From Escherichia coli (GTDB taxonomy: Bacteria; Pseudomonadota; Gammaproteobacteria; Enterobacterales; Enterobacteriaceae): DNA of 64,000 nt. The translations under genes were made by a program, and so were the position numbers. The notes under the pieces are model-generated. The model saw only the letters and a program-made list of their open reading frames with translations, was not told the DNA's origin and made no database searches. Of this stretch, positions 1 through 41,924 are shown piece after piece. Position 1 is the stretch's first letter. Each line of letters opens with the position of its first letter. The stretch lies in the NCBI RefSeq assembly GCF_003019035.1, contig NZ_CP027447.1; one strand, given 5' to 3'.

Positions 1-1073
1 GCGACGCGGTGCGCGGCTTGTTCCAGGTGACCATTTAACGACGCCCGCAAGGCATCATCGGCAATTAACGTTTCACCAAACCATTGACCCGCTCGTGCGA
101 TACGTTCTTTCACACGAGAATCTTCACTGTTGATATCCACTTTCAGCCATTCCCGTAAATCCCCCCACAATTCACTGAGATAGCGATTAAAAGCTTCATC
201 TTCTTTCAGATAGCTTTTTACGGCATCGGCTCGCGCTGCCATTTCCGGATCGTTTTTCAGCTTGTCGATCATGGCAAAGGTGGCGCGATCAAACGCATTG
301 CGGATCTGATGCGCACGATCGCGACTAATATCATCAAGCAAAGAATTCACCGCGTCAGAAACCAACTCCGCGCTATGTTCGCCCAGCCATTCGGTGGGGA
401 GAATTTTGGCTTTCAATGGATGCTCGCTCTCCAGCCAGCGAACAATTTGCTGGGCGATAAACTTGCGCGATTTATCGCGCTGGAGAAGGGCGATCAACTG
501 TGCGATCAGCGTATCCAGCAGCACCTGATGACGATCGTTTTTGGTCATACTCTCCAGCATCAACGCACTGGTGCCGGAAAGATCGACCTTATCAATCGCC
601 CGATGGACTGCGCGCTTAAGCAGGCGCTGAATACGCGCATCATCGGTCAGTTCAAGAAAACCACTCATGATCTGCAACAGATGCTGACCAACGCGGCGGG
701 CGTTTTCTGGCTGACTAAACCAGTTGCCAATCAACAACGCCGGTTCGTGACGTCGAATCAATGCCACCAGCGATTGGGTATCGAGAAATTTTTCCTGCAC
801 GAACTGACCGAGATTTTCGCCAATCCGGTCTTTATTACGCGGGATAATCGCCGTATGACGAGAAATGATCGGAATCGGCACGCGGCGAAATAGCGCCACC
901 ACCGCAAACCAGTCCGCCAGCGCGCCGACCATCGCCGCTTCAGCAATCGCCTTCACGCCGCTCACCCAAAAATTGGGCGGCAAAAACAGCGTAACGACAA
1001 AGGTAGCAGCGGCGATAAGCAGTAAAGAGAGCGCCAACATTTTGGCGCGTCTGAGTTCAATGAGTTTATTCAT
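1..1073 (-). CDS. yjiN: DUF445 family inner-membrane protein YjiN, 5' part only (3' end lies beyond window start)
   Basis: Reverse-strand translation from ATG at 1073 gives [30 protein letters not shown]..., open to position 1; sits downstream of mdtM as in K-12. Confidence 0.75.
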
Positions 1074-1113
1074 AACGTTAAGAATAGAGCCTGACGGCAG
1101 GATCGCGCAAAAA

Positions 1114-2346
1114 TCACCGCTCCTCCGCCAGCTCGGCAGCCTGATGCTGGCGCACGCGATTGAGCAATCCCGCCAGGGTGAAAACGACGATAACGCCCGC
1201 TAAAACGGCTAACAGATGAAACGGCAAGCGACCGCCGTTAAACCACAGCCAGCGGCCGATTTCGACTGAGACAGACATCACCATCAGGATCACCATATTT
1301 AGCGATGCGGAGACGGTCCCTTTCGGTAAGTTATTGGAAAACAGCGTAAAGCGGAATAAGGTCGGGAAAATCAAACCAATCCCGAAAGCATACAGACTGG
1401 TGCCCAGCACCGACCACAGCCAGACGTGCGGCGACAGCAGATTGCCGATAATCAACAGCGAGAGGCCGACCAGTTGAAGGGGTACGGCACGCCAGATAAA
1501 CCGCGGTTCGGTCGGATCTTTAACGAAACGCGCCACGATGGCATTCGCAACAATCACCGCGCCGAACACCGGAACCTGTGTCCAGGCGAACTGCGAAGTT
1601 GTTAAGCCGCCTGCATCGATAAGGATCACCGGCGAGACAGCCACCCAGCTCATCATCGGGATATAGCTTAAAGAGATGGTTGCTGCGCCAAAGAGGAACA
1701 GCCGATTGCAAAAGACATTACGAAAATCGCGCAAGACGCTTTTGGCGCTAAACGGAACCGCGCCGCGCTTCACCGTCTCTGGCATCGCCAACAGTAAGCC
1801 AACAAATGAGATAAAACCCATAACCGCAATGATGGCAAAAAGGACTTTCCAGTGCATAAAGTGCATCAGAGCTGCGCCGGAAAGCGGGCCGATAATCGGC
1901 GCAATCAGTACGATGGAGGTGATAATCGCCATCAACTTGATCCCTTTTGTCTGTCCGAACGCCTCCTGCACCGTGACATAACCAACGGTGGCAATAAAAC
2001 AGATACTGGTGCCCTGAATGGCACGCGCGATAAGAAACTGTGTCATAGACGTTGTGAACATTGTCGCGGCGCAGGCAAGGGTAAAAATTAGCGCCCCGGT
2101 AATCAGCACCGGCCTGCGGCCAATTCTGTCGGAAAGTGGCCCCAATAGCCACTGTAACGCCATACCGCCAGCGAGATAGAGACTGACGGCAGCAGGGGCC
2201 AGACTGACATCGGCATTAAAATCACGTACCACATTAATAATCCCTGGCTGGATTAGATCCGTCGACAGGTACGCGGCAAAGTCATACAAAATCAACGCCA
2301 TCGGGAAAAACAGCGTGGCGGCATGGCGGGCAAAAAAACGTGGCAT
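1114..2346 (-). CDS. mdtM: MFS multidrug efflux transporter MdtM
   Basis: 410 aa from ATG at 2346 ([10 protein letters not shown]...) with AAGGAG 8 nt upstream; track ORF starts 9 nt further up at TTG; MFS motifs [13 protein letters not shown]. Confidence 0.9.
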
Positions 2347-2813
2347 AAAAAACAACTCCTTGTCCGGAGAACCCCAATGGGGAAAACGAAATTCAATACC
2401 GTCGGTAATGACGAAAGGCAGGCGAGAAGGACAAATGTACTGAATTTCATGTAATCAACCACACTGCCTGTGAACACACAGACAGAGAAATACCTTCTGA
2501 CTCCAGGTCAGAATGTATAACGATTACAAATAGTCATCAGCACATTACACCTCTTGAATTGATGGATTGCATAGAAAATATACACCTTAAGTGTAATTAA
2601 AATTTGCGGTTAATCAAAAGAGCGCGGTGGAAAGGGGAATATCTGCCGGGTACAGGACATGTAAAAACACGAGCCTGTTTCCGGAAAAATGTATCGTTTG
2701 CAGAGGAACAAAAATAGCCTGGAAAGCACCTCGGGGAACGAGAAATTGCCGGGTGAGAATTGTTTTGTTAGTCGCTACAGTCGGGCCATCTTATCTACAG
2801 GTGACGGATCGCC

Positions 2814-3770
2814 ATGACAAACTTCACGACCAGTACGCCGCATGACGCATTATTTAAATCCTTTCTCACGCACCCTGACACCGCGCGGGATTTTATGGAG
2901 ATCCACTTACCCAAAGATTTACGTGAACTGTGCGATCTCGACAGCTTAAAACTGGAATACGCCAGCTTTGTCGATGAAAAATTGCGGGCGCTACATTCCG
3001 ATATTCTGTGGTCGGTAAAGACCCGCGAAGGAGATGGCTATATTTATGTGGTGATTGAACATCAGAGCCGCGAGGATATCCATATGGCCTTTCGCCTGAT
3101 GCGATATTCCATGGCGGTGATGCAGCGCCATATCGAGCGTGATAAACGCCGGCCGCTACCGCTGGTCATCCCGATGCTGTTTTATCACGGTAGCCGTAGT
3201 CCTTACCCCTGGTCTTTGTGCTGGCTGGATGAATTTGCCGACCCGGCTACCGCACGGAAGCTTTATACCGCAGCGTTCCCGCTGGTGGATGTCACTGTCG
3301 TGCCAGACGACGAGATTGTGCAGCATCGCAGAGTCGCCCTGCTGGAGTTGATCCAAAAGCATATTCGCCAGCGCGATCTAATGGGGCTTATTGATCAACT
3401 GGCAGTATTACTGGTTACAGGGTGCGCTAATGACAGCCAGATAACCGCGCTGTTAAATTACATTTTACTGACTGGCGATGAAGCGCGTTTTAATGAGTTT
3501 ATCAGCGAACTTATCCGTCGAATGCCACAACACAGGGAGCGAATAATGACGATTGCAGAGCGAATTCATAATGATGGATGGCTGTTGGGAAGGGAGAGGG
3601 GGAGGAAAGAAGGGAAAGAAGAAGGGGAAAAGAGCCTCCTCCGATTGTTGTTGCAGAATGGGGCGGATCCTGAATGGATACAACGATATACCGGACTTTC
3701 GGCAGAGCAAATGCAGGCATTAGATCAGCCCTTGCCTGAAAGCAAGCGCGATCCATGGATCGAGTACTAA
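2814..3770 (+). CDS. rpnD: Rpn (YhgA-like, PD-(D/E)XK transposase_31) recombination-promoting nuclease, intact 318 aa
   Basis: ORF track 2814..3770; family hallmarks [23 protein letters not shown] and Lys/Glu/Gly-rich C-terminus; position between mdtM and yjiR matches yjiP/yjiQ locus. Confidence 0.75.
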
Positions 3771-3797
3771 TCAGAGGCCGATGGCAAACGCAAAGCT

Positions 3798-3826
3798 GCC
3801 TGATGCGCTACGCTTATCAGGTCTAC
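3798..3826. repeat. REP-like palindromic element between convergent rpnD and yjiR
   Basis: gcctgatgcgctacgcttatcaggtctac resembles REP consensus (GCCTGATGCG...CTTATCAGGCCTAC), shortened. Confidence 0.4.
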
Positions 3827-4012
3827 ATAACCCATTAAATATATTGAATTTTAAAGATTTTGTAGACCTGGTAAGGTGTTCACATGGCATCCGGCATGAA
3901 CGAAGCGCATTTTGCCTAAGCCATGCTGGAACGTGGAGATGACCCTGCAAAGATAAAACGAGTCACACGCTATTCGTGAGAGGAAATCAGGGGGCTCGCC
4001 ACTATTTCGAAT

Positions 4013-5425
4013 TCATTCCATTGCCCGATACACGGCTTCGCCAATTTGCTTCAGTGCTTCGCGATAGGTTTCGCTGAGCGGCAAAGCGCAGTTGATGCGC
4101 AGACAATTACGGTATTTGCCGGAAGCTGAGAAAATCGAGCCTGCCGCCACCTGGATTTTCATGCGGTATAGCTGCCGCGCAACGCAAACCATATCGACCT
4201 GTTCAGGCAATTCGATCCACAGTAAAAATCCGCCTTTCGGGCGCGTAATACAGATTTCGCAGGGAAAATATTCCCGTATCCAGCAGGTATAAAGCGCCAA
4301 ATTGCGCTGATAGATCTGCCGCATCCGCCGGATATGGCGATGATAGTGACCTTCCAGCACAAACGTTGCCGCCGCCATTTGCGTGGACGGCACATTAAAG
4401 CTGCTGATGGCATATTTCATATGCAGCAGTTTATCGTGATAGCGCCCCGGTGCGACCCAACCCACGCGCAGGCCTGGAGCAATACTTTTACTGAACGAGC
4501 TGCACAACAGCACTCGCCCGTCGATATCCCAGGAATGAATGGTCCGCGGGCGCGGATACTCCGTCGCCAGTTCGCCGTAGACATCATCTTCAAAAATCAC
4601 AATATCATGACGCTGAGCGAGAGAGAGAACGGCCCGTTTGCGCGCGTCCGGCATAATAAATCCCAGCGGATTATTACAGTTTGGCACCAGAATGATGCCT
4701 TTAATCGGCCACTGCTCCAGCGCCAGTTCCAGCGCTTCAACGCTGATGCCTGTTTCTGGATCGGTGGGGATTTCAATCACTTTCACGCCCATGCCGCGCA
4801 GCATCTGCATCGAACCGTAATAACAGGGGGATTCGACCGCGACAATATCGCCCGGTTTACACACTGCCATCAACGCCAGCGACATCGAGTTATGGCAGCC
4901 GCTGGTGATGATGATGTCATCGGCGGTGACCACCGAGCCGCTGTCGAGCATCAGGCGGGCAATCTGCTCGCGCAATACCCGCTGGCCGGCTAACAAGTCA
5001 TAACCGAGAACGGTTTGCAGATTATGCTGCACCACCCGGCTTAGCTCCCGCCACAGCGGTTTCAGGCTGGGCGTTTCGACATCCGGCGTGCTTTTACTTA
5101 ACGGAACAATGGAACTGTCGCTATGCGCCTCCAGCATATCCAGCACCTGATCCCACTGGGTAATTTCCACCGGGCGCTGCACCGGACGCGTCATCGGCGG
5201 TACTGGCGGCTGGGCTTTACGTTGTGCGACAAAATAACCCGAACGCGGCTGCGGAGTGATGAGCTTCATCGTCTCCAGCGTCTGGTACGCCTGCTGCACG
5301 GTGCTAATACTGACGCCGTGCTCCTGACTCAAGCTGCGCACCGACGGCAATTTCTCCCCGTGACGATACAGCCCTTGCTCAATCCGCTCTGCAAGCAGAG
5401 TCGCCAGATGTTGATAACGCGTCAT
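4013..5425 (-). CDS. yjiR: MocR-subfamily GntR regulator with aminotransferase-like (PLP) domain
   Basis: 470 aa; N-terminal HTH (LPSVRSLSQEHGVSISTVQQAY) plus large C-terminal fold-type I aminotransferase-like domain. Confidence 0.85.
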   Translation of the reverse strand: MTRYQHLATLLAERIEQGLYRHGEKLPSVRSLSQEHGVSISTVQQAYQTLETMKLITPQPRSGYFVAQRKAQPPVPPMTRPVQRPVEITQWDQVLDMLEAHSDSSIVPLSKSTPDVETPSLKPLWRELSRVVQHNLQTVLGYDLLAGQRVLREQIARLMLDSGSVVTADDIIITSGCHNSMSLALMAVCKPGDIVAVESPCYYGSMQMLRGMGVKVIEIPTDPETGISVEALELALEQWPIKGIILVPNCNNPLGFIMPDARKRAVLSLAQRHDIVIFEDDVYGELATEYPRPRTIHSWDIDGRVLLCSSFSKSIAPGLRVGWVAPGRYHDKLLHMKYAISSFNVPSTQMAAATFVLEGHYHRHIRRMRQIYQRNLALYTCWIREYFPCEICITRPKGGFLLWIELPEQVDMVCVARQLYRMKIQVAAGSIFSASGKYRNCLRINCALPLSETYREALKQIGEAVYRAME

Positions 5426-5601
5426 GCTGTATTCCTTATTTGGACCATACAGAGGGAAAAACCGGTACAGATGAGGCTAAAAAACCGGATGCAGATGCTG
5501 TTTTAACCTGTCTGTATGTTAAATAAAAGTAATGTTTGAATCTGTATTGTGAACTGCCAAAAGGCGGATGATGAAGCCTCTGAAAGATGAGGAGGCAGCA
5601 G

Positions 5602-5766
5602 ATGGAATTTCACGAAAACAAAGCTAAAGCACCGTTTATTGGACTTGTGCAACTCTGGCAGGCAGTGAGGACCTGGTGGCTGAAAAAGCAGACCCGGCGC
5701 GTGTTACAGCAGATGAGTGATGAGCGGTTGAGGGATATTGGGTTACGCAGGGAGGATGTGGAGTGA
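5602..5766 (+). CDS. yjiS: DUF1127 small protein YjiS (54 aa)
   Basis: ATG at 5602 with AGGAGG 6 nt upstream; MEFHENKAKAPFIGLVQLWQAVRTWWLKKQTRRVLQQMSDERLRDIGLRREDVE. Confidence 0.8.
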   Translation: MEFHENKAKAPFIGLVQLWQAVRTWWLKKQTRRVLQQMSDERLRDIGLRREDVE

Positions 5767-5775
5767 TGGGGCAAT

Positions 5776-5800
5776 TTCCCTTCCCGTATGGGGAAGGGGA
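5776..5800. terminator. Hairpin between convergent yjiS and symE (possible bidirectional terminator)
   Basis: cccttccc-gtat-ggggaagggg inverted repeat in the 41-nt gap. Confidence 0.4.
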
Positions 5801-5807
5801 GAGAAAC

Positions 5808-6146
5808 TTAGCGTGGCGTTTTGCTACTAATCACCCCAATAAAATCCTGCACCTGCTTTTGTTTACGCGCCGACAGCTTGCACACCTGGCGCAGCGACAG
5901 CATCAGTTCGCTCTCTTCGGCGGCGGGTGGTTGGGCGGTGAGGACAATACAGCCTTCCATCACTTTGACATCTACCGCCGTGCCGGTGGCAAAACCGGCG
6001 GTTTCCAGCCACTGACCTTTCAGGGTGATGGCGGGAATACGGCTGTAATCCGGGTAGCGACTCGCATAACTCACGGTTAATTGACGGTTATTTGCCGGGG
6101 AGACTTCTGCTTCGAACGGTTGTGCAATAGAATGCGTGTCAGTCAT
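5808..6146 (-). CDS. symE: SymE, SOS-induced type I toxin (AbrB-fold RNA-cleaving protein)
   Basis: 112 aa [48 protein letters not shown]... matches remembered SymE; LexA-like box upstream. Confidence 0.85.
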
Positions 6147-6216
6147 GATTACTATTCCTTAGAAATAGGGATTGTGATTAGCGGTGCGGGTGTGTTGGCG
6201 CACATCCGCACCGCGC
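6138..6216 (+). ncRNA. symR: SymR antisense sRNA (antitoxin of symE), approximate ends
   Basis: By analogy with K-12, where SymR is antisense to the symE start and 5'UTR; candidate -10 TAGAAT at 6128..6133 on + strand and GC hairpin 6181..6214; boundaries not verified. Confidence 0.4.
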
Positions 6217-6223
6217 TAAATAC

Positions 6224-6239
6224 CTGGATATATCATCAG
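6224..6239. promoter_or_regulatory. LexA (SOS) box upstream of symE
   Basis: CTGGATATATCATCAG fits CTGT-N8-ACAG with AT-rich centre, about 80 nt upstream of the symE start codon. Confidence 0.5.
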
Positions 6240-6328
6240 TAAATATGGGGAAAGTCCAGCTAAAAATAGAAAATAATAAAAGCGTTACTGGAAAGATCTG
6301 GAAGAGAAATTAACGTTAATTCAGAATG

Positions 6329-6354
6329 GCCGGATAACAAAGTGTATCCGGCCT
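6329..6354. terminator. Hairpin immediately downstream of hsdR stop
   Basis: ggccggata-caaagtg-tatccggcc inverted repeat 7 nt beyond the hsdR stop codon. Confidence 0.35.
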
Positions 6355-6360
6355 TCATAA

Positions 6361-9300
6361 TTAGTTTAAAACACTCATATGATGTTCTTTAAAATTCTCT
6401 GCCTGTGCCAGCACTCCCATATAAACATCATCATTCGCTACTGGCGGGAACTTATGCTTGTGTAGAAGAAGAATAAGTTCAACTTTTAGTTTCGCTTTAA
6501 TATCATCGCGCTTACTCCAGTCAGGATATTTCGATGTGTTGTCAACCACGCTTTTCATCTCTTTTGCCAGTGACAGCATTTTTTCATCGTCATAGGTGAA
6601 CTGATATTTATCGCGCATATGAGCAAGAATGTCGAAAAACGCTTTTTCTTCAATATCAATACCTAAATCGGCCCATGTGCCCATTTCGGTTTTAATATCA
6701 TAGATAATATCGGTCATTTCCTGACTGAATGTATCGAATTCTTCACCGTTGAGTACATCATCTTCTCGCCGCTCATTATAACGATCTATAATCGCCTGGA
6801 AGCGGCGGGTGAAGTTAATCCCTTGCAACTGGTTCACTTTCTTGAAGTCGCTGATCGCTTTTTCCAGTAATTTTTGTAATAACTGGATCTTTGTTGCCGG
6901 AAGTTTGATCTTGTTAATTCGCGCCAGATAATCTTCGTCAAAAATATCGATGGATTCCGCTTTTTTATCGCCAAGAAAATAAATTTCTTCTACGCCATCA
7001 GCTTTTAGCGCTTCTGCAATCATTTCACGAACGCGTGCATTCATCTGGGTGACATCCGGTGCGTCACCTTTCGTCAGTTTGAAAACAATTGAACGAACAG
7101 CAAGATAATAGTGAATATGATCACGTTCTGTCTGTGATAGTGCTTCACTGCCGCAGCAGACGTCGTAGGCGGCTTTCATGCGTTTAACCAGTCCCATAAA
7201 ACGACGTTCAACTTTCTGGGTACGCAGAACAAATTCCGCCGCGCGGTTGAGGCAGGATAATTGCGCTTGTGGCTCACCACTAAAATAATCCCGACTGTCA
7301 AATTCGTAAAAGACTTGCCCCAACAAATCGAGATGGTTTTTAACTTCTATTACCGATTGCTGAATATCTTCAAAGTTGGTGGCATCAATGCGGGAATACA
7401 TTGCCAGTGCCTGGTTCATCTGACTTTTAATGCCGATGTAGTCCACCACTAACCCTTTACTTTTGCCTTCCAGTTTACGGTTAACGCGAGAAATGGTCTG
7501 GATAAGATTATGTTTTTGTAAGGGTTTATCAATATAGATGGTATCCAGTTCCGGGACGTCGAAACCAGTCAGCCACATATCAACAACAATGGCAATTTTG
7601 AAATTCGATTTAGCGTTTTTGAACTGCTTATCCAGCTCTTTACGATATTCTTTTGTGCCCAGTAAATCATAAAGCGCCTCGTCGTCATCTTTACCGCGCG
7701 TCATGACCATCTTCACCATTTCTGAAGGCGGTAACTCTTTCTGCTCCTGTTCCGTCAGGACGACGCCATCGGGGGCTTGCTTCACTTCAAACCAGGTAGG
7801 GCGAATAGCTTTAAGCTGGCGGTAGAAATCCCAGGCAATTTCACGGCTGGCACAAACAAACATGGCTTTGCCTTTTACGGTGGAACCTTCGGCTACGCGT
7901 TTTTCATAATGTTTAGCAAAATCTTCCGCGAGGGCTTTTAACCGATCTTCATCACCCAGTACCGCATTCATGGTTGCGGTGGCTTTTTTGCTTTCGTCGA
8001 TTTGCCACTCATTGGTGCCTGCGTTTGCGCACTCTTCGTAATACTTTTCGACTTCTTCCAGTTTGCTGGAGTCCAGGATCACTTTAGCCGCACGGCCTTC
8101 GTACACGATGCGTACAGTGATTTCATCCTGAACGGATTCGGTCATGGTGTAACTGTCGATCACCTCACCGAAGACATCGAGCGTCGCGTCAATCGGTGTG
8201 CCGGTAAAGCCAACATAGGTGGCGTTTGGCAGTGAATCGTGCAGGTATTTCGCAAAGCCATAAGTTTTGCGCACTTTTCCGCTTTCTTTATCGACGATGA
8301 CTTTCTGGTCGAGGTTAACCTGGCTGCGATGTGCTTCGTCTGAGATGCAAATGATATTGCTGCGTTCAGAAAGGAGTTCGGTGTCTTCGGTGAATTTATG
8401 GATCGTTGTCAGGAATACACCGCCACTATTGCGTCCCGCCAGTTGATTACGCAAATCTTCACGGCTGATAACAGGAACGATGGTGTCGTCGCCAATGTAA
8501 TTTTTGGCGTTGCACATTTGCGCAGAAAGCTGATCGTCCAGATCGGTGCGGTCGGTGATCAAAACAATGGTCGGGCTGGCAAACTCCACGCTCTTCATCA
8601 AAAGACGCGTTAAAAATTGCATGGTGTAACTTTTGCCACAGCCCGTTGCGCCAAAGTAGGTGCCGCCTTTACCGTTACCGAAAGGTTTACGCGCTTGCTT
8701 GATGCTGTAATAGAGTTTGCGGGCGGCATAGTACTGCGGATATCGGCAGCAAATTTTTACTTCGTGCTTAGCTTTATCCGGGAAGCAGATAAAGTTTTTA
8801 ATCACATCCAGCAGACGTACCGGATGAAACAGCCCCTGAATCATTGAGTGCAATGACGGAATTCCGTCCTGTTCACGGTTTTCATTACCGGTGACTTTGC
8901 GCCATGAGTAAAAATATTCATAGGGCGCAAACAGGTTGCCCATCCGGTTATTAACGCCATCGCTAATAATGCAGAGCGCGTTGTAGATAAACAGTTGCGG
9001 AATATCCCGGCGGTAGCGTTTACAGAGCTGCTTCCAGGCATCACCTATACTGGCTTCCTGCTCGCGCACCGCGCTTTTAAATTCAAAGACGACCAATGGC
9101 AGACCATTGATATAGAGAATGCCGTCAGGAATACGAGTCTGATTATCTTTGCCGGAGATTTTAAGCTGGTTAACAATCTTAATCCGGTTAAGCGGCGGAT
9201 TAATATAGGAGGGCGGGAGTTCTGCCGCCTGTTGCAACGGGACATCTTCGGCGTCAAATATCTGGCGCAGTGCGGCAGGTAGATGCCGGGTGTCGAGCAA

Positions 9301-19659: not shown

Positions 19660-21102
19660 ATGCAGGTTGACTGGTTAATCAAAAATGTGACCGTTATCGA
19701 CGGTAGCGGCGGCCCTGAATTTCGCGGTGACGTGGCAATAACAGGTGATCGGATTGTCGATATTGCCCCTGCGCTTAACGTTACGGCGCAGCAGGTCATT
19801 GACGGGGAAGGGCGGGTGCTGGCACCAGGGTTTATCGACGTTCATACCCATGACGATATCAACGTTATTCGCATCCCGGAATATCTGCCAAAGATCAGCC
19901 AGGGGATCACTACGGTGATTGTCGGTAACTGCGGGATTAGTGCGGCGTCGGCGAAAATGAAAGGTGAAGTTCCTGACCCGATGAATCTGTTGGGGGAAGC
20001 AGAGCACTTTATTTATCCTACCGTTGAAAGCTATGCCCAGGCAGTGGAAGCAGCCAGGCCGTCACTGAACGTTGGCACGCTGATTGGTCATACGGCGCTG
20101 CGTAATAACCATATGGACGACCTGTTTCGCCCGGCGACGGTGGATGAAATTGCCGCTATGCGTGCCGACTTACGTCTGGCGTTGAGTCAGGGGGCGCTGG
20201 GGTTAAGTTCCGGGCTGGCCTATGCAACGGCATTTCAGGCGACTACCGAAGAAGTCATGGCGCTGGCGGAAGAATTAGCCGGTGAGAAGGGCGTTTATAC
20301 CACCCATCTGCGTTCTGAATTTGAACCGATTCTCGATGCCCTGGATGAGGCGTTTCGTATTGGGCGTCATGGCAAAGTGCCTGTCGTGGTTTCCCACCAT
20401 AAATGCGCCGGGGCGAAAAACTGGGGGCGGACAAAAGAAACGTTGGCCTTTTTTGACCAAATGCGTCAACACCAGGAAATTGGCTGCGATGTCTACCCTT
20501 ACTCGGCCAGTTCTTCAACGCTGGATCTCAAACAAGTCACCGACGAATTCGATATTGTGATCACCTGGTCACAAACACATCCGCAGCAGGCCGGGAAAAC
20601 ACTGGCACAAATCGCCATCGACTGGCAGATGAGTATGCTGGAGGCCGCGAAGTTGCTGATGCCTGCCGGGGCTATCTATTACAACATGGACGAGCGCGAC
20701 GTCCGCAGAGTGTTGAGTTATCCGGTCAGTATGATTGGCTCTGACGGACTGCCCAATGATCCCATGCCGCATCCGCGTTTATGGGGCGCTTTCCCTCGCG
20801 TGCTGGGTCACTATTGCCGTGATGAAGGCTTATTCCCACTGACCACGGCTATCCACAAAATGACCGGGCTTTCTGCCAGCCGTTTTCGTCTGCCTCAGCG
20901 TGGGCTGGTGAAAGTCGGCTATTTTGCGGACCTGGTGTTGTTCGATCCACAAACCATTCGTGATGTTGCCAGCTTTTCTGATCCCAAACGCCCGGCAGAT
21001 GGCATTGAGGCGGTGATGGTGAACGGCGTTATGAGCTATGGTCGCGATAAACACATTACAGGCCGTGCGGGACGCTTCCTGCGCCGCCAGACCTCACATT
21101 AA
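19660..21102 (+). CDS. D-aminoacylase (N-acyl-D-amino-acid deacylase), amidohydrolase superfamily
   Basis: 480 aa from ATG at 19660 (GGAG SD); MQVDWLIKNVTVIDGSGG..., metal-binding FIDVHTHDD. Confidence 0.8.
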   Translation: MQVDWLIKNVTVIDGSGGPEFRGDVAITGDRIVDIAPALNVTAQQVIDGEGRVLAPGFIDVHTHDDINVIRIPEYLPKISQGITTVIVGNCGISAASAKMKGEVPDPMNLLGEAEHFIYPTVESYAQAVEAARPSLNVGTLIGHTALRNNHMDDLFRPATVDEIAAMRADLRLALSQGALGLSSGLAYATAFQATTEEVMALAEELAGEKGVYTTHLRSEFEPILDALDEAFRIGRHGKVPVVVSHHKCAGAKNWGRTKETLAFFDQMRQHQEIGCDVYPYSASSSTLDLKQVTDEFDIVITWSQTHPQQAGKTLAQIAIDWQMSMLEAAKLLMPAGAIYYNMDERDVRRVLSYPVSMIGSDGLPNDPMPHPRLWGAFPRVLGHYCRDEGLFPLTTAIHKMTGLSASRFRLPQRGLVKVGYFADLVLFDPQTIRDVASFSDPKRPADGIEAVMVNGVMSYGRDKHITGRAGRFLRRQTSH

Positions 21103-38558: not shown

Positions 38559-38645
38559 TGGTGCGAGGGGGGGGACTTGAACCCCCACGTCCGTAAGGAC
38601 ACTAACACCTGAAGCTAGCGCGTCTACCAATTCCGCCACCTTCGC
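38559..38645 (-). tRNA. leuV: tRNA-Leu(CAG), copy 1
   Basis: 87-nt reverse complement of canonical tRNA-Leu1 (GCGAAGGUGGCGGAAUUGGUAGACGCG...CCCCCCCCUCGCACCA). Confidence 0.9.
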
Positions 38646-38679: not shown

Positions 38680-38765
38680 TGGTGCGAGGGGGGGACTTGA
38701 ACCCCCACGTCCGTAAGAACACTAACACCTGAAGCTAGCGCGTCTACCAATTCCGCCACCTTCGC
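38680..38765 (-). tRNA. leuP: tRNA-Leu(CAG), copy 2, variant (86 nt)
   Basis: Same as copies 1 and 3 except G-run of 7 instead of 8 and aagaac instead of aaggac. Confidence 0.75.
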
Positions 38766-38793
38766 CCAGTGCGAGCAATATCAACGTGGTTTT

Positions 38794-38880
38794 TGGTGCG
38801 AGGGGGGGGACTTGAACCCCCACGTCCGTAAGGACACTAACACCTGAAGCTAGCGCGTCTACCAATTCCGCCACCTTCGC
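38794..38880 (-). tRNA. leuQ: tRNA-Leu(CAG), copy 3
   Basis: 87 nt, identical to copy 1. Confidence 0.9.
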
Positions 38881-38989
38881 ATACCATCAATTCTTAAAAA
38901 GAATTGCTACCACGGAGGCGCATTCTAGTGGTTTTCAGCTTTTCGTCAATAGTTAATTATCGCCGGAGGTGTAATTGCTGGAAAAATGT

Positions 38990-39175
<186 letters not shown>

Positions 39176-39180
39176 GATAC

Positions 39181-40212
39181 TCAACCTTTCTTCGCCTGGC
39201 GGGTCATAATGGCGCGATACACCTTGAAGCGCCCGGTTTGCGCGATCACTTCGTGGAAGCCAAATGTCTCATCCAGCACGTCCGGGTAAGGCAGGAAGGC
39301 GTTCGCTACAATTCGCAACTCGCCGCCGCTGTTCAGATGACGCACCGCGCCGCGAATCAGCGTTTGCGCGGCATCCAGGCTGGTTTGCATCCCATCGTGG
39401 AATGGCGGGTTGGAGATGATCATATCAAAACGACCTTTCACCTCGGAAAAGACGTTGCTGGCAAAGACTTCACCTTCAACACCGTTGGCCGCAAGTGTTG
39501 CACGGCTGGCTTCTACCGCCGGGGCAGAGACATCGCACAGAGTGAGACGAATCTTCGGCGAGTGGCGCGCAAACGCAACTGAAAGCACACCTGCACCGCA
39601 GCCGACATCCAGCACTTTACCTTTCGTGTGCGGGGTTAACGTCGAGAGCAGTAACTGGCTACCGACATCCAGACCGTCGCGGCTAAACACGCCCGGCAGC
39701 GTTTTGACCGTCAGGCCATCGACACTGTATTCGCCCCAGAATTTCTCGGCATCAAATACTGGCTGTTTTTCCAGACGACCAAAATAGAGGCCACAGCGAC
39801 GAGCGCTGTCCACTTTATTCAACGGCGCATAATCTGCCAGCATCTGCTCGGCGCTGCGCACGCCGCTGCGGTTCTCACCAACGACGAATATGTCAGTCCC
39901 CACCGGCAGCAGAGAAAGTAAATTCATCAACTGGAACTGGGCTTCCGGTTTGTTCTTCGGCCAGTAGTAAATCAGCGTATCGCAATCTGCGACATCATTC
40001 GCCGTGGCGACCAGACTAAAACGGGCGTTATCCCCCATCTGGCGGCTTAACACCTGCCAGTGGTGGAATTGCTGGGTATGAGCACGGCTGTCCGCGGTAT
40101 CTAAACGCGCGGGCAGGTCATCCTGTAAGTCTCCGGCAAACAGAATACGGCTTTGTTCGAAATCATCACTGTGACGCAGCAAGACTTCACTTGCCGGGGT
40201 AAATGCAGACAT
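39181..40212 (-). CDS. rsmC: 16S rRNA (guanine1207-N2)-methyltransferase
   Basis: 343 aa; SAM motif [12 protein letters not shown] and NPPFH. Confidence 0.9.
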
Positions 40213-41835: not shown

Positions 41836-41924
41836 TTGCCTCCCCCCGTTGATGGGTAAAATAGCCGCAATTTTTCGTTTTCAACAAGCGCGGCGCGATG
41901 CCGCTTACTCAAGAAGAAAGAATT

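Follow-up and report, generated by a model that had tools for sequence, protein, structure and literature searches.

Probable homopolymer under-call in the leuP gene of an Escherichia coli leuQ-leuP-leuV tRNA operon

The leuQ-leuP-leuV operon and its surroundings

Between yjjZ and rsmC, the analyzed stretch of E. coli chromosome (64,000 nt; hereafter, the window) carries a minus-strand cluster of three tRNA-Leu(CAG) genes (Table 1). All three were called as minus-strand tRNA-Leu(CAG) genes by ARAGORN (38559–38645, 38681–38766, and 38794–38880). Infernal scoring of the three copies, which had been proposed in a preliminary description of this DNA, was performed with cmscan and the Rfam tRNA model RF00005 and gave 48.5 bits for leuV, 40.8 bits for leuP, and 48.5 bits for leuQ, compared to a gathering score of 29. 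In MG1655, the genes are arranged as leuV, leuP, and leuQ on the plus strand, which corresponds to a transcription order of leuQ, leuP, and leuV on the minus strand; the copy initially described as the middle one of the leuQPV operon is therefore leuP. The synteny of the cluster with yjjZ and rsmC is common to MG1655, MRY15-117, SMS-3-5, SCU-301, and the window. The locus is the ordinary, already known leuQ-leuP-leuV tRNA-Leu(CAG) operon of E. coli.

In K-12, RNase P alone processes the leuQ-leuP-leuV transcript, cutting out the three tRNAs (PMC2190699). The sequences reported there downstream of leuQ, leuP, and leuV match CCAAAAACC, CCAAACGAG, and CCAATTATC, which follow the respective CCA in the window. 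Two details of that publication are worth mentioning for anyone comparing sequences: in its Table 1, the leuQ and leuP downstream sequences are swapped relative to the paper's own text, and the legend of its Figure 5 assumes one and the same sequence for the leucine tRNA genes, whereas in MG1655 a single variable-arm base sets leuP apart from leuQ and leuV. E. coli has four redundant tRNA-Leu(CAG) genes (PMC2190699). We found the repeat in about four copies per genome (median of four matching places), i.e., the three copies of this cluster plus leuT.

A promoter-like site sits approximately 40 nt upstream of leuQ. Judged by its match to the consensus, it is likely to function as the operon promoter, and the operon would then be transcribed on the minus strand from upstream of leuQ. 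Between the leuQ promoter region and rsmC, the window furthermore contains two copies of a GC-rich palindromic repeat (38995–39185; e.g., gtaggtcggataaggcgttcacgccgcatccgac and gtaggttgtataaggcgagcacgccgcatccggc), which look like extragenic repeats of the REP/BIME type. The gap between leuQ and rsmC comprises 300 nt in the window and in SMS-3-5, versus 267 nt in K-12.

Table 1. Features of the leuQ-leuP-leuV region and of the second shortened run in the window.
Feature	Position	Strand	Evidence and remarks
leuV, last gene of the operon, tRNA-Leu(CAG), 87 nt	38559..38645	minus	ARAGORN, RF00005, alignment; followed by CCAATTATC
leuP, middle gene, tRNA-Leu(CAG), 86 nt as written	38680..38765	minus	ARAGORN; RF00005 40.8 bits, one acceptor position deleted; followed by CCAAACGAG
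G7 run (C7 in the RNA)	38688..38694	plus	G8 in the sister copies, K-12, SMS-3-5, and SCU-301; probable site of a homopolymer under-call
A replacing G, aagaac instead of aaggac (U for C in the RNA), variable-arm stem	38718..38718	plus	Normal base distinguishing leuP
leuQ, first gene of the operon, tRNA-Leu(CAG), 87 nt, with plus-strand G8 run	38794..38880	minus	ARAGORN; RF00005 48.5 bits; identical to K-12 leuQ; followed by CCAAAAACC
Promoter-like site, TTGACG, 16 nt, TAGAAT; 10/12 matches	38922..38949	minus	Consensus scan only
C6 run between yjjG and prfC, right after the stop codon of yjjG	41842..41847	plus	C7 in SCU-301 and the MG1655 reference

Sequence and predicted structure of the middle gene

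By alignment as well as by direct extraction, the leuQ and leuV copies are identical and 87 nt long, in agreement with what had been noted for the first and third copies. At 86 nt, including the encoded CCA, leuP differs from these outer copies at exactly two places. Both had been located correctly in the preliminary description, as had the gene itself (38680–38765): a run of seven instead of eight G, and aagaac instead of aaggac. The CAG anticodon was found by ARAGORN, and the cmscan alignment revealed the long variable arm of a class II tRNA with a 12-nt insert (guucuuacggac). Both the middle position within the three-gene cluster and the leuP-specific downstream sequence CCAAACGAG identify the gene as leuP. 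With K-12 leuP (b4369), it shares the place between yjjZ and rsmC, the gene order, the spacers, the anticodon, the variable-arm U, the encoded CCA, and 86 of 87 bases. The spacers on either side of leuP are unique sequences of 28 nt (toward leuQ) and 34 nt (toward leuV). The single difference is that the 8-C run of the T-stem/acceptor strand is short by one C. A different tRNA architecture, as might be read from the ARAGORN placement with the anticodon at position 36, was considered and rejected. The one-base shift arises because one base is missing in leuP, and the shifted placement borrows an upstream G to offset it.

The two differences had at first been handled as one event, but they are separate. 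At position 38718, leuP of MG1655, SMS-3-5, and MRY15-117 all carry the same base as the window, and the 87-nt K-12 leuP allele with the variable-arm U has an exact match in 4,537 of 5,429 RefSeq complete E. coli records. The change replaces C-G with U·G as the third variable-arm pair; pairing is kept and the anticodon is untouched. Judged from these comparisons, the substitution is real and is the standard leuP allele, being neither a sign of decay nor a new isoacceptor. Since it leaves the anticodon unchanged, leuP is an isodecoder rather than an isoacceptor, and the suggestion of a variant isoacceptor can be dropped. The deletion is a distinct event and is considered in the following.

According to the cmscan alignment, the 8-C run of the RNA forms the 3' strand of the T-stem (five C) and the first three nucleotides of the 3' acceptor strand, which is the T-stem/acceptor region to which the run had been assigned. 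The stack of a 7-bp acceptor stem and a 5-bp T-stem has a fixed length that is gauged by tRNA-processing enzymes and EF-Tu, and an acceptor/T helix that is one layer short should impair the processing and use of a tRNA. As written, leuP lacks an acceptor stem of seven layers on a 5-bp T-stem; with a run of truly eight C, it would have one. The normal tRNA-Leu(CAG) has an A5·C mismatch in its acceptor stem, and it is effectively the partner of A5 in this mismatch that is lost. Unconstrained minimum-free-energy folding missed the cloverleaf even for the normal genes and was thus uninformative, so it was replaced by an explicit evaluation of cloverleaf energies. This yielded −26.6 kcal/mol for the 7-C form, with six acceptor pairs and a bulged A5, versus −27.1 kcal/mol for the 8-C form. 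The energy is almost unchanged because the lost C faces the natural A5·C mismatch. The expectation that the indel disturbs acceptor/T-stem pairing thus holds insofar as the acceptor helix is one layer short, but the cloverleaf still forms with near-equal energy, and 40.8 bits remain above the score of 29.

The similar energies and a score above the Rfam gathering threshold are the points in favor of regarding the 86-nt form as a functional variant isodecoder, whose altered acceptor stem would be kept by selection. However, the fixed length of the acceptor/T-stem stack is generally known, and the 87-nt form is kept in the great majority of the records (4,537 of 5,429). The distribution of the short form among assemblies, described below, also speaks against this reading, which we consider highly improbable.

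Comparison with close relatives and with the K-12 derivative ER1709

Comparison with other strains, likewise proposed beforehand, revealed eight G in leuP of SCU-301, MG1655, and SMS-3-5. SCU-301 is the nearest relative; over the central 24.5 kb, it has practically the same sequence as the window, yet is two bases longer. Compared base by base over positions 8000–63700 (approximately 55 kb), the window and SCU-301 differ by only two SNPs and two one-base gaps. Both gaps are on the window side and affect long G/C runs, the leuP run being G7 rather than G8 and the run at 41842 being C6 rather than C7. The window has only four G/C runs whose true length is at least seven, and two of them are shortened; for the 12 A/T runs of at least seven, no length difference from SCU-301 was found. 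The C6 run is probably a second homopolymer under-call in the window, as suggested by these alignments. Eight of the nine closest genomes over the 24.5 kb span 24,503 bases compared to 24,501 in the query, which would fit full-length runs at both sites. Similarly, in three of these genomes (SCU-301, TCM3e1, and strain 20), the counterpart of the 481-nt tRNA-cluster query is 482 bases long, consistent with eight G.

Two further explanations for these gaps were considered and rejected. Insertion errors in SCU-301 do not fit with the occurrence of 8-C leuP in MG1655, SMS-3-5, and 4,537 records, nor with the absence of the C6 spacer from 98% of records. Clonal inheritance of a real mutation was considered for the seven genomes whose 481-nt cluster is the same as in the window: they are not its closest relatives, as CLSC36, for instance, is only 98.7% identical over the 24.5 kb, and the nearest relative has eight G.

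Alternatively, the missing base could reflect a real replication-slippage deletion in leuP. In the resulting tRNA, A5 would be bulged and the acceptor stem reduced to 6 bp; this tRNA would be poorly processed, charged, or used, and the copy would be decaying toward a pseudogene, with leuQ, leuV, and leuT making its loss tolerable. Runs of eight G are slippage hotspots, and the leuP run is accordingly prone to such a deletion. The redundancy of the four tRNA-Leu(CAG) genes (PMC2190699; median of four places per genome) and the drop of the tRNA score from 48.5 to 40.8 bits also fit this scenario, as does the cleanness of the rest of the window in the comparison with SCU-301 and in a check of the left end. 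Indeed, the window is otherwise clean and the assembly is not grossly error-ridden, which are counter-points to an under-call; no frameshifted gene was seen in the window. However, the deletion is found neither in SCU-301 nor in the other closest relatives, and leuP shows no further decay. Like a decaying duplicate or tRNA pseudogene, leuP of the window is redundant and has a structural lesion in the acceptor stem; unlike such a gene, it has a single lesion, scores well above the threshold, has close relatives without the lesion, and fits a known artefact pattern. For a pseudogene, a lesion inherited within a clade and additional decay would be expected; here, the closest relatives are intact and no other change relative to K-12 leuP was found. 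If the deletion were nevertheless real, leuP would likely be a weak or dead copy. Its loss would be tolerated because leuQ, leuV, and leuT, the three genes left with the same anticodon, supply the corresponding tRNA.

As a positive control, we used the assembly of the K-12 derivative ER1709 (NZ_CP030240.1). Over 40,092 bases aligned to MG1655, no substitutions but six one-base deletions were detected, all of them in homopolymers. Four of these lie in the three leu tRNA genes of the cluster (the G8 run of each gene and a further C5 run of leuQ), one in the C7 run of the spacer, and one in an A7 stretch of yjjQ. Thus, the four long G/C runs found here are all under-called in ER1709, among them both sites that are short in the window. 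Its yjjQ is annotated as 'frameshifted' because of the deletion that turns A7 into A6. The three leu tRNA genes of ER1709 (19888–20206 of the NZ_CP030240.1 region) are 85, 86, and 86 nt long and are annotated as normal tRNA-Leu. For the window, this means that the leuP deletion is accompanied by a second G/C-run deletion at a proven hotspot of assembly errors, and that the same change is present in assemblies of K-12 derivatives whose reference has eight C. Both points argue against slippage in the organism, which we therefore regard as unlikely, though it is the alternative to be taken most seriously.

The left end of the window differs from the rest. Positions 1–9000, comprising yjiN, mdtM, a gene of the Rpn family, yjiR, yjiS, symE, and the start of a type I restriction R subunit, show at most 97.3% identity to any of 5,426 complete genomes, and nearly all SNPs relative to SCU-301 are located at 2–8 kb. 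The mdtM segment (1114–2678) had no match in the SCU-301 region compared. SCU-301 has an IS621 there, and no match to IS621 was found in the window. Compared to strain E47, the genes of this divergent 9 kb are intact and the indels present are not homopolymer errors, which is neutral with regard to an artefact in leuP. Going by its sequence divergence, the segment looks like a recombined patch that adjoins a variable restriction-modification region.

Distribution of shortened runs and reading of the deletion

Alleles were counted as exact matches among RefSeq complete E. coli records (5,429, or 5,424 for the spacer). The K-12 form of leuP with eight C was found in 4,537 of 5,429 records, the window form with seven C in 180, and a form with nine C in 35, while the 7-C allele of the leuQ/V/T type was present in 362. 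The C6 form of the yjjG-prfC spacer was counted in 88 of 5,424 records. Shortened tRNA-Leu(CAG) genes are thus found in about 3–7% of the RefSeq complete E. coli records, where they are still annotated as normal tRNA-Leu of 85–86 nt.

The carriers of 7-C leuP are unrelated strains from many laboratories, and they include long runs of consecutive accessions from single sequencing projects. Among the carriers of shortened runs are K-12 derivatives, namely ER1709, NEB 5-alpha, DHB4, and a re-assembly of MG1655, although the runs of the K-12 reference are full length. The C6 spacer is strongly enriched among assemblies with shortened tRNA-Leu genes. Co-occurrence counts are lower bounds, drawn from the first 60 carriers listed for each allele. 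Seven-C leuP and the C6 spacer occurred together in at least 15 records versus 2.9 expected (P about 1e-7), and 7-C leuP coincided with another 7-C copy in at least 25 records versus 12 expected; at least nine records among the matches listed combined 7-C leuP, another 7-C copy, and the C6 spacer. A property of whole assemblies, rather than of single loci, best explains these co-occurring short sites as they appear in the sequence records. A functional isodecoder kept by selection would not be expected to show this pattern: the carriers, K-12 derivatives among them, are scattered and give no indication of clonal descent, and the same shortening affects other copies in the same assemblies.

We conclude, with a probability of roughly 0.87, that the missing base of leuP is a homopolymer-length under-call in the assembly and that the true gene would be a normal leuP of 87 nt. 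A run of eight G would have been read as seven during sequencing, an under-call such as long-read or other homopolymer-prone sequencing typically produces, and the missing base is most likely present in the DNA of the organism. From this, we infer that the window's own reads would show eight G. The features of leuP agree with those of homopolymer errors: a change of ±1 in a long run, absence from the nearest relatives, scattered carriers, and co-occurrence above chance. Residual homopolymer errors in assemblies have been described by Wick & Holt 2022 (PMC8812927). Our case resembles these errors in being a one-base deletion in a long G/C homopolymer within a multi-copy repeat, in recurring in unrelated assemblies, and in co-occurring with other homopolymer deletions; on this sequence-based likeness, leuP of the window can probably be placed in that error class.

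Among the three options initially offered, i.e., a decaying tRNA copy, a real variant isoacceptor, or a homopolymer sequencing error, the last is thus favored for the deletion by the comparison with SCU-301, the nature of the carriers, the co-occurrence, and ER1709. For the substitution, which is real and standard for the species, none of the three applies. It is also conceivable that the G8 run of all tRNA-Leu(CAG) genes is a real, often-slipping tract and that some of the 7-G and 9-G alleles found in 3–7% of E. coli assemblies are real, which we consider very doubtful. Such slippage would switch copies off and on, tuning the dosage of the most-used leucine tRNA.

With an under-call as the preferred explanation, the locus itself carries little biological weight: leuP is the textbook gene, and its odd base count is most likely an artefact. 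The finding may be of use for quality control, as under-calls recur at the G8 run of tRNA-Leu(CAG) genes and at the C7 run that follows yjjG. These sites could give a quick warning of homopolymer errors in an E. coli assembly. Shortened tRNA-Leu genes are present in 180 (leuP) and 362 (leuQ/V/T type) of the about 5,400 E. coli records designated 'complete' in RefSeq.
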